DNA of 1,108 bases from Escherichia coli (GTDB taxonomy: Bacteria > Pseudomonadota > Gammaproteobacteria > Enterobacterales > Enterobacteriaceae). This document shows, one piece after another, positions 1,003 through 1,030 of this stretch. The stretch lies in NCBI RefSeq assembly GCF_003334385.1, contig NZ_QOWN01000127.1; one strand, given 5' to 3'. The notes beneath the pieces are model-generated. The model had not been told where the DNA came from. It did not search any database and was given only the letters and a program-made list of their open reading frames with translations. The position numbers were made by a program, and so were the translations under genes. Every line of letters begins with the position of its first letter. Position 1 is the first letter of the stretch.

Positions 1003-1030
1003 GTGATATCACGTCCGCGAAGGGATATCC
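1003..1030. repeat. Two GATATC-centred palindromes, GTGATATCAC (1003-1012) and GGATATCC (1023-1030), centres 19 bp apart
   Basis: Both are perfect palindromes read directly from the sequence, and both are followed by CAC/AC. Function unknown; possible protein-binding sites. Confidence 0.4.

Follow-up and report, generated by a model that had tools for sequence, protein, structure and literature searches.

Two short perfect palindromes with a common GATATC core lie upstream of a surface adhesin gene in a stretch of Escherichia coli DNA of 1,108 nt (the window), and the question raised by this locus is whether the pair represents sites for a regulator, as proposed in a preliminary description of the DNA, or incidental sequence. 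Direct reading and a palindrome scan agree on a centre-to-centre distance of 19 bp, as described before, and place the pair 157-184 nt upstream of the eib start codon. The features concerned are, in window coordinates:

1003-1012, no strand: the proximal perfect palindrome GTGATATCAC (10 bp), with its centre at 1007.5, 161.5 nt upstream of the eib ATG.
1013-1022, no strand: the 10-bp spacer between the palindromes, polymorphic at position 1015.
1023-1030, no strand: the distal perfect palindrome GGATATCC (8 bp), with its centre at 1026.5, 180.5 nt upstream of the eib ATG.
1-846, minus strand: the 5' part of a gene for an EibA-like immunoglobulin-binding trimeric autotransporter, with 76% amino-acid identity to EibA of prophage P-EibA.

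The gene is opened by the ATG at 846, and translation gives a minus-strand ORF with 282 codons inside the window (1..846) which continues past its left end. The genes hit by Megablast in phage records and E. coli genomes are labelled YadA C-terminal domain protein or eibA. The order of genes on the eib strand is J, lom, a tail fibre gene (orf-401), a tail-fibre-assembly-like DUF4376 gene (orf-191, tfa-like), a gap of 370-680 bp, eib and orf-156, and this order (J-lom-stf-tfa-eib-orf156) was seen in every annotated relative, that is P-EibA, P-EibC, P-EibD and the RefSeq genomes. With an Eib/YadA-like gene downstream and tail-fibre genes upstream, all in the same orientation, the locus is an eib locus; the 262 bp at window positions 847-1108 are the gene-proximal part of the upstream region of eib, carried by a lambdoid E. 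coli prophage, and eib is a prophage moron placed after the tail-fibre genes of such prophages. The description of this DNA as the non-coding upstream region of a surface adhesin, and of the gene as horizontally acquired, is thus borne out. The tfa-like gene ends about 420 nt past the right window edge. The gap that separates eib from the tfa-like gene holds three hairpins which resemble terminators and have T runs; they are on the plus strand, antisense to eib (5383-5400, 5426-5445 and 5512-5529 of locus L001), and face against eib and the late operon, as if halting transcription from the eib side.

Among 5426 complete E. coli genomes, 27 carry the 262-bp upstream region at 96.6-98.5% identity, with as many as six locations in one genome. 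It is found in no context other than eib among E. coli genomes, phages and plasmids, the plasmid collection giving just one chance match of 32 nt. A scan of species-representative contigs with a conserved anchor returned 13 matches outside E. coli, all of them chance matches in unrelated taxa, which indicates that there are no homologues outside E. coli among the species representatives. The bodies joined to the conserved upstream region are mosaic, with ORFs from 356 to 466 aa and the 76% identity of the window protein to EibA, and the control region appears to move as a conserved cassette attached to variable eib bodies.

How unusual the palindromes are depends on the scale at which they are viewed. 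GATATC is present twice in the window with 0.22 occurrences expected, and only 4 of 200 shuffles reach this number. Five perfect palindromes of at least 8 bp are present in the 262-bp upstream region compared to 1.37 in dinucleotide shuffles (P ~0.011); the unusual density of dyad-symmetric elements noted earlier therefore stands as a density above chance, but the excess is only modest. Two palindromes of at least 8 bp with a common 6-bp core and at most 30 bp apart occurred in 1.2% of shuffles of the 262-bp region, in a test that was post hoc. About two dozen distinct types of same-core pairs were found outside eib upstream regions in approximately 800 kb of fetched DNA, and extrapolation of 1.2% per 262 bp gives an expectation on the order of hundreds of chance same-core pairs per bacterial genome. 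The pair is real and mildly unusual locally, and it is not rare at genome scale. A second GATATC-centred pair, TGGATATCCA and TTGATATCAA, about 27 bp apart, was observed at five of the collected loci (L012, L016 around 6646, L037, L044 and L060) in conserved coding sequence with third-position variation, and is an example of a GATATC pair which has arisen without a regulatory role.

The two palindromes have the perfect dyad symmetry, over 10 bp and 8 bp, that is expected for an operator pair. Consensus scans gave no promoter- or terminator-like match at 1003-1030, and the sole sigma-70-like match on the eib strand, TTGAAC-17-GATAAT at 892-864, is about 110-140 nt away from the palindromes. The operator consensus of HipB is TATCC-N8-GGATA, and a HipB-like operator was rejected after 0 matches were obtained when up to two mismatches were allowed. 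In the literature, the palindrome strings were found only in cloning primers with EcoRV sites, and an 89-nt segment around the palindromes occurs only at eib loci among the 5426 E. coli genomes. In these searches the pair neither matched a known motif nor recurred as in a regulon.

Natural variation gives a more direct view of the palindromes. The upstream type to which the window belongs (A type) was represented by 56 near-identical copies with 37 haplotypes, the extra copies being taken from IMG/VR and metagenomes by use of two conserved proximal motifs as anchor. Substitutions are found at 28 of 262 nt sites (10.7%) over the whole region and at 2 of 18 positions (11%) in the palindromes, so that the lower substitution rate than in flanking non-coding DNA which would be expected for operators is not seen. 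The distal palindrome is broken in 11 of the 56 copies, being GGATACCC in ten and GGATATCA in one (eib strand). The commoner allele is a T to C change at 1025 on the eib strand (A to G on the plus strand, which turns GATATC into GGTATC); it is found with both spacer alleles, and full-length eib ORFs of 394-466 aa follow downstream in all four of the ten cases in which the contig could be checked. The proximal palindrome GTGATATCAC is without a single variant in the 56 copies. At spacer position 1015 the eib strand has G in 35 copies and A in 21, and in the window itself two minority alleles are present, one at 1031 that is unique among the 56 copies and one at 999 shared by 3 of 56. The A allele at 1015 turns the spacer into a third palindrome, TTCGCGAA (5022-5031 of L001, corresponding to window 1013-1022), and copies with this allele, such as P-EibA, have three abutting palindromes in the arrangement GGATATCC-c-TTCGCGAA-c-GTGATATCAC.

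A search for distant BLAST matches, together with a scan anchored on the protein, added seven upstream types that have the same gene context: K (KY202), F (FHI11), C (P-EibC and P-EibD), L139, L144/L151, L148 and L150/L157. All upstream types align without gaps across the 70 nt upstream of a conserved box, and none of the seven has the palindrome pair at the homologous place. The distal GGATATCC is absent there from all seven, K having GAATAATG in its place. Of the proximal palindrome, the K type keeps the core GATATCACCGAC, that is the 6-bp GATATC only, and one K-type copy (L115) has GATGTC instead; the remaining types have at this position a loose GTGA..A..CC.A pattern lacking dyad symmetry, and the proximal dyad is not kept outside the A type. 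Each type has peculiar palindromes elsewhere, for instance ACTGTACAGT in K and, in C, a polymorphic CTGATATCTG that lies further upstream. Of the four main types, A (P=0.02), K (P=0.05) and C (P=0.003) show a modest enrichment of palindromes of 8 bp or longer and F does not, and there may be a general pressure for dyad symmetry in eib upstream regions. The GATATC pair occupies the least conserved stretch of the control region, between a CRP-like site and the first of two RcsAB-box-like motifs, and neither the sites nor their symmetry are conserved in the homologous promoters. The preliminary description had suggested that the pair marks a further regulator and had itself named a lack of conservation as the result that would speak against this; with the distal palindrome broken in 11 of 56 copies and missing from seven types, and the proximal one reduced to GATATCACCGAC in K, the suggestion is not sustained, and the lack of conservation is largely what the comparison found. 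Since the pair is lost in related eib loci and natural alleles break one of the palindromes, it is most likely incidental and does not represent regulator sites.

The same comparison reveals which parts of the eib control region persist across diverged types. Four blocks are kept: the CRP-like site, the two inverted RcsAB-box-like motifs, ATCAGATTTTCTTTA and TTTGTATACA. Together with an inverted repeat, they are located as follows:

1103-1107, no strand: the TGTGA half-site of a CRP-like TGTGA-N6-TCACA (L001 5112-5127), with the other half just past the right window edge, within about 11 nt of it.
978-991, minus strand: the RcsAB-box-like motif TAAGGAAATTCCGA, with a position conserved in all upstream types.
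950-987, no strand: an 11-bp perfect inverted repeat GAAATTCCGAA-N16-TTCGGAATTTC, given as a stem_loop in GenBank AF151091, between the palindromes and the gene.
934-947, plus strand: the second, inverted RcsAB-box-like motif TGAGCTTACTCCTG, with 9/14 matches here and 11-12/14 in the F and C types.
904-918, minus strand: the conserved 15-mer ATCAGATTTTCTTTA, used as anchor for the collection scans.
870-879, minus strand: the TTTGTATACA block, seen in the comparison of upstream types, which includes the palindrome TGTATACA (870-877).

The CRP-like site is centred approximately 264-284 nt upstream of the eib ATG. In 54 copies of the A type and a single K copy its form is perfect, and the others deviate by one or two mismatches; a perfect TGTGA-N6-TCACA occurs in at most 0.05% of shuffles. 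Inspection by hand, on both strands, for a -10 element spaced from this site as in class I or class II promoters gave nothing convincing. In the A, C and F types, the motif at 978-991 agrees with the RcsAB box consensus TaAGaatatTCcta (PMC4325325) at 11/14 positions, and the five conserved bases are all among them. Read along the eib strand, it starts 12 nt past the proximal palindrome, and the two RcsAB-box-like motifs sit on either side of the annotated stem-loop at positions conserved in all types. The ATCAGATTTTCTTTA block, 58-72 nt upstream of the ATG, is near-invariant in three types (A, F and K) and can still be made out in the remaining ones, and no known motif was recognised in it. 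Only one palindrome, TGTATACA, persists in all four main types (A, C, F and K). Binding of CRP and RcsB to the respective blocks can be predicted because the motifs are similar to known sites and hold their positions across types, and the pair of RcsAB-box-like motifs suggests a possible RcsB-dependent control of eib, which would fit the reported induction by static growth.

Some further observations concern this part of the upstream region. A palindrome over the ribosome-binding site (849-856) is GGTATACC in A, GGATATCC in C and GATATATC in K, so the sequence differs and the symmetry is retained in these three types, and F has none. A LexA-like CTG-N10-CAG, looked for by eye near 868-886, was rejected because the spacing is wrong (N13). 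The F-type upstream segment (L004 3078-3210, minus strand) folds into four hairpins with z = -3.09, and 0 of 200 shuffles folded as well; the A, K and C segments show no such folding (z between -0.9 and +0.3).

Three other explanations of the pair have to be considered. Since GATATC is self-complementary, pairing of the two copies would give a stem of 6 bp and a loop of 13 nt, and the hexamers could be the arms of a stem-loop, either a DNA cruciform or a hairpin in the RNA of a long eib 5' leader, which is kept in position and not in sequence. Such a structure would be in line with the perfect 10-bp inverted repeat TGGTGTAGTC-N12-GACTACACCA that the L139 type has at the homologous place (98-129 nt upstream of the L139 RcsAB-like box, the homologue of window 978-991) and with the 6-7 pairs, G-U wobbles included, that can be formed on the eib strand of the C, L144 and L150 types by direct reading. 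However, the stem is absent from the minimum-free-energy and centroid folds, and the folding energy is unremarkable both for the 46-nt segment (z = +0.54) and for 136 nt (z = -0.10). Moreover, the common changes T to C at 1025 and G/A at 1015 break pairs with no compensating change, RNAalifold gave no consensus pairs for 19 sequences covering all types, and the A-type register is one base off that of the other types. In the best common register 49% of cells are paired versus 52% in shuffles, and slid controls are equal or better, so a hairpin between the GATATC arms was rejected and we regard it as very improbable. There is no T run after the stem, which excludes a terminator; a stable fold, covariation or a GC stem with U tract, as in structured RNA or intrinsic terminators, was not found, and Rfam returned no relevant match, only a snoRNA match at chance level inside the CDS. 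The palindromes could alternatively belong to a small or degraded protein-coding gene, since a 32-codon plus-strand ORF (1003-1101) begins at the GTG of GTGATATCAC, and one phage record has small plus-strand hypothetical genes that start near the right window edge. This has practically no likelihood: the common substitutions at 1015, 1025 and 1031 would all be non-synonymous (P to S, D to G and H to R), where a conserved ORF with synonymous variation would be expected, the longer plus-strand ORF of P-EibA crosses a 2-nt indel relative to KY176, and a small ORF was rejected on these grounds. The reservation made in the preliminary description, that the palindromes might turn out to be coding sequence or the 3' end of a neighbouring gene, is settled in the same direction, as the tfa-like gene ends about 500 nt from them and the PGAP annotation of 27 RefSeq genomes is empty under the match.

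The third explanation centres on the proximal palindrome. According to this, a dimeric regulator encoded by the host, the prophage or an island (the IbrAB activator, for example) has a genuine site in the proximal GTGATATCAC of the A and K lineages, and the distal GGATATCC tolerates mutation because it is a dispensable auxiliary site. Eib expression is indeed known to be regulated, as EibG is raised by static growth, reduced oxygen, alkaline pH and 37 °C (PMC4352079), and a passage of PMC7649339, with reference to Sandt et al. 2002, describes ibrB as enhancing Eib expression. A conserved RcsAB-box-like motif is only 12 nt away, and GTGATATCAC is invariant in 56/56 copies; yet ten invariant positions are expected by chance in about 30% of cases when approximately 11% of sites are variable (0.89^10). 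The GATATCACCGAC run common to A and K is, by eye, the longest identical run of its block against a background of about 65% identity, and its preservation amid diverged flanks could reflect constraint, but one K-type copy has GATGTC and the dyad is lost in the C, F, L139, L144, L148 and L150 types. No known motif is matched, the HipB-type pattern included, and the segment occurs at no other place in the 5426 E. coli genomes. The C-type genes eibC and eibD are reportedly also activated by IbrAB, and as these genes are without the pair, responsiveness to IbrAB should not depend on the pair and cannot depend on GTGATATCAC. Overall, a genuine proximal site is in our opinion unlikely. One may also speculate that the abutting palindromes of the A lineage constitute a lineage-specific operator cluster for a putative dimeric regulator, possibly encoded by the prophage or the ibrAB island; if true, this would add a layer of control missing from the other eib types, but we consider it a rather doubtful possibility.

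Taken together, the palindromes are probably an incidental feature of one lineage, located in a spacer of the eib control region that is variable, and no selection is apparent for the pair as such, for its dyad symmetry or for a hairpin. Under this preferred reading the palindromes would lie in the variable middle of an approximately 270-bp control region and would form neither a functional unit, an operator pair nor a hairpin, while regulation of eib would act through the blocks conserved in all types (CRP-like site, RcsAB-box-like pair, ATCAGATTTTCTTTA and TTTGTATACA) and the palindrome-bearing segment would be at most AT-rich spacer DNA. With the proximal palindrome bordering on a moderately conserved stretch at the edge of the RcsAB-box-like block, its outer bases could be part of a longer site lacking dyad symmetry. 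The literature found contains no mapped eib promoter, operator or transcription start, and no cis-elements for the reported responses to static growth, oxygen, temperature and IbrAB; since eib is regulated without known cis-elements, the conserved blocks are better experimental targets than the GATATC pair. More generally, short perfect palindromes in AT-rich prophage upstream DNA should not be read as operators without comparative support, which is absent here.

It is useful to compare this locus with known systems. One of them is the eibA upstream region of P-EibA from ECOR-9 (AF151091), which is 97.3% identical to that of the window and has the same gene order and the same annotated stem-loop; this stem-loop (window 950-987) is the only upstream annotation made by the depositors, and nothing is said there on the palindromes. 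The eibC and eibD upstream regions of P-EibC and P-EibD, also from E. coli ECOR-9 (AF151674 and AF151675), are without the palindrome pair. In its context, eib resembles phage morons, the autonomous cassettes in late regions of temperate phages, as it lies between the tail-fibre genes and the prophage end and has its own upstream region and a downstream stem-loop, a likeness that concerns the context of eib only and is silent on the palindromes. The pair itself resembles the tandem dyad operators of dimeric helix-turn-helix regulators such as HipB and the lambdoid repressor, in that two short perfect dyads are present about two helical turns apart in non-coding DNA upstream of a regulated prophage gene. 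Unlike these operators, however, the eib pair is not conserved in homologous promoters, one of its members carries a mutation in about 20% of natural copies, it has no known cognate regulator and its motif is not met with again at other places; furthermore, the pair lies 157-184 nt upstream of the start codon and off any recognisable promoter, and the HipB spacing does not fit. The GATATC palindromes belong neither to the RcsAB box nor to the CRP site, and the GGA and TCC half-sites in GGATATCC are 2 bp apart whereas they are 4 bp apart in the idealised Rcs box. Among known dyad-like regulator sites, it is the RcsAB box and the CRP site that match conserved blocks of the eib region.
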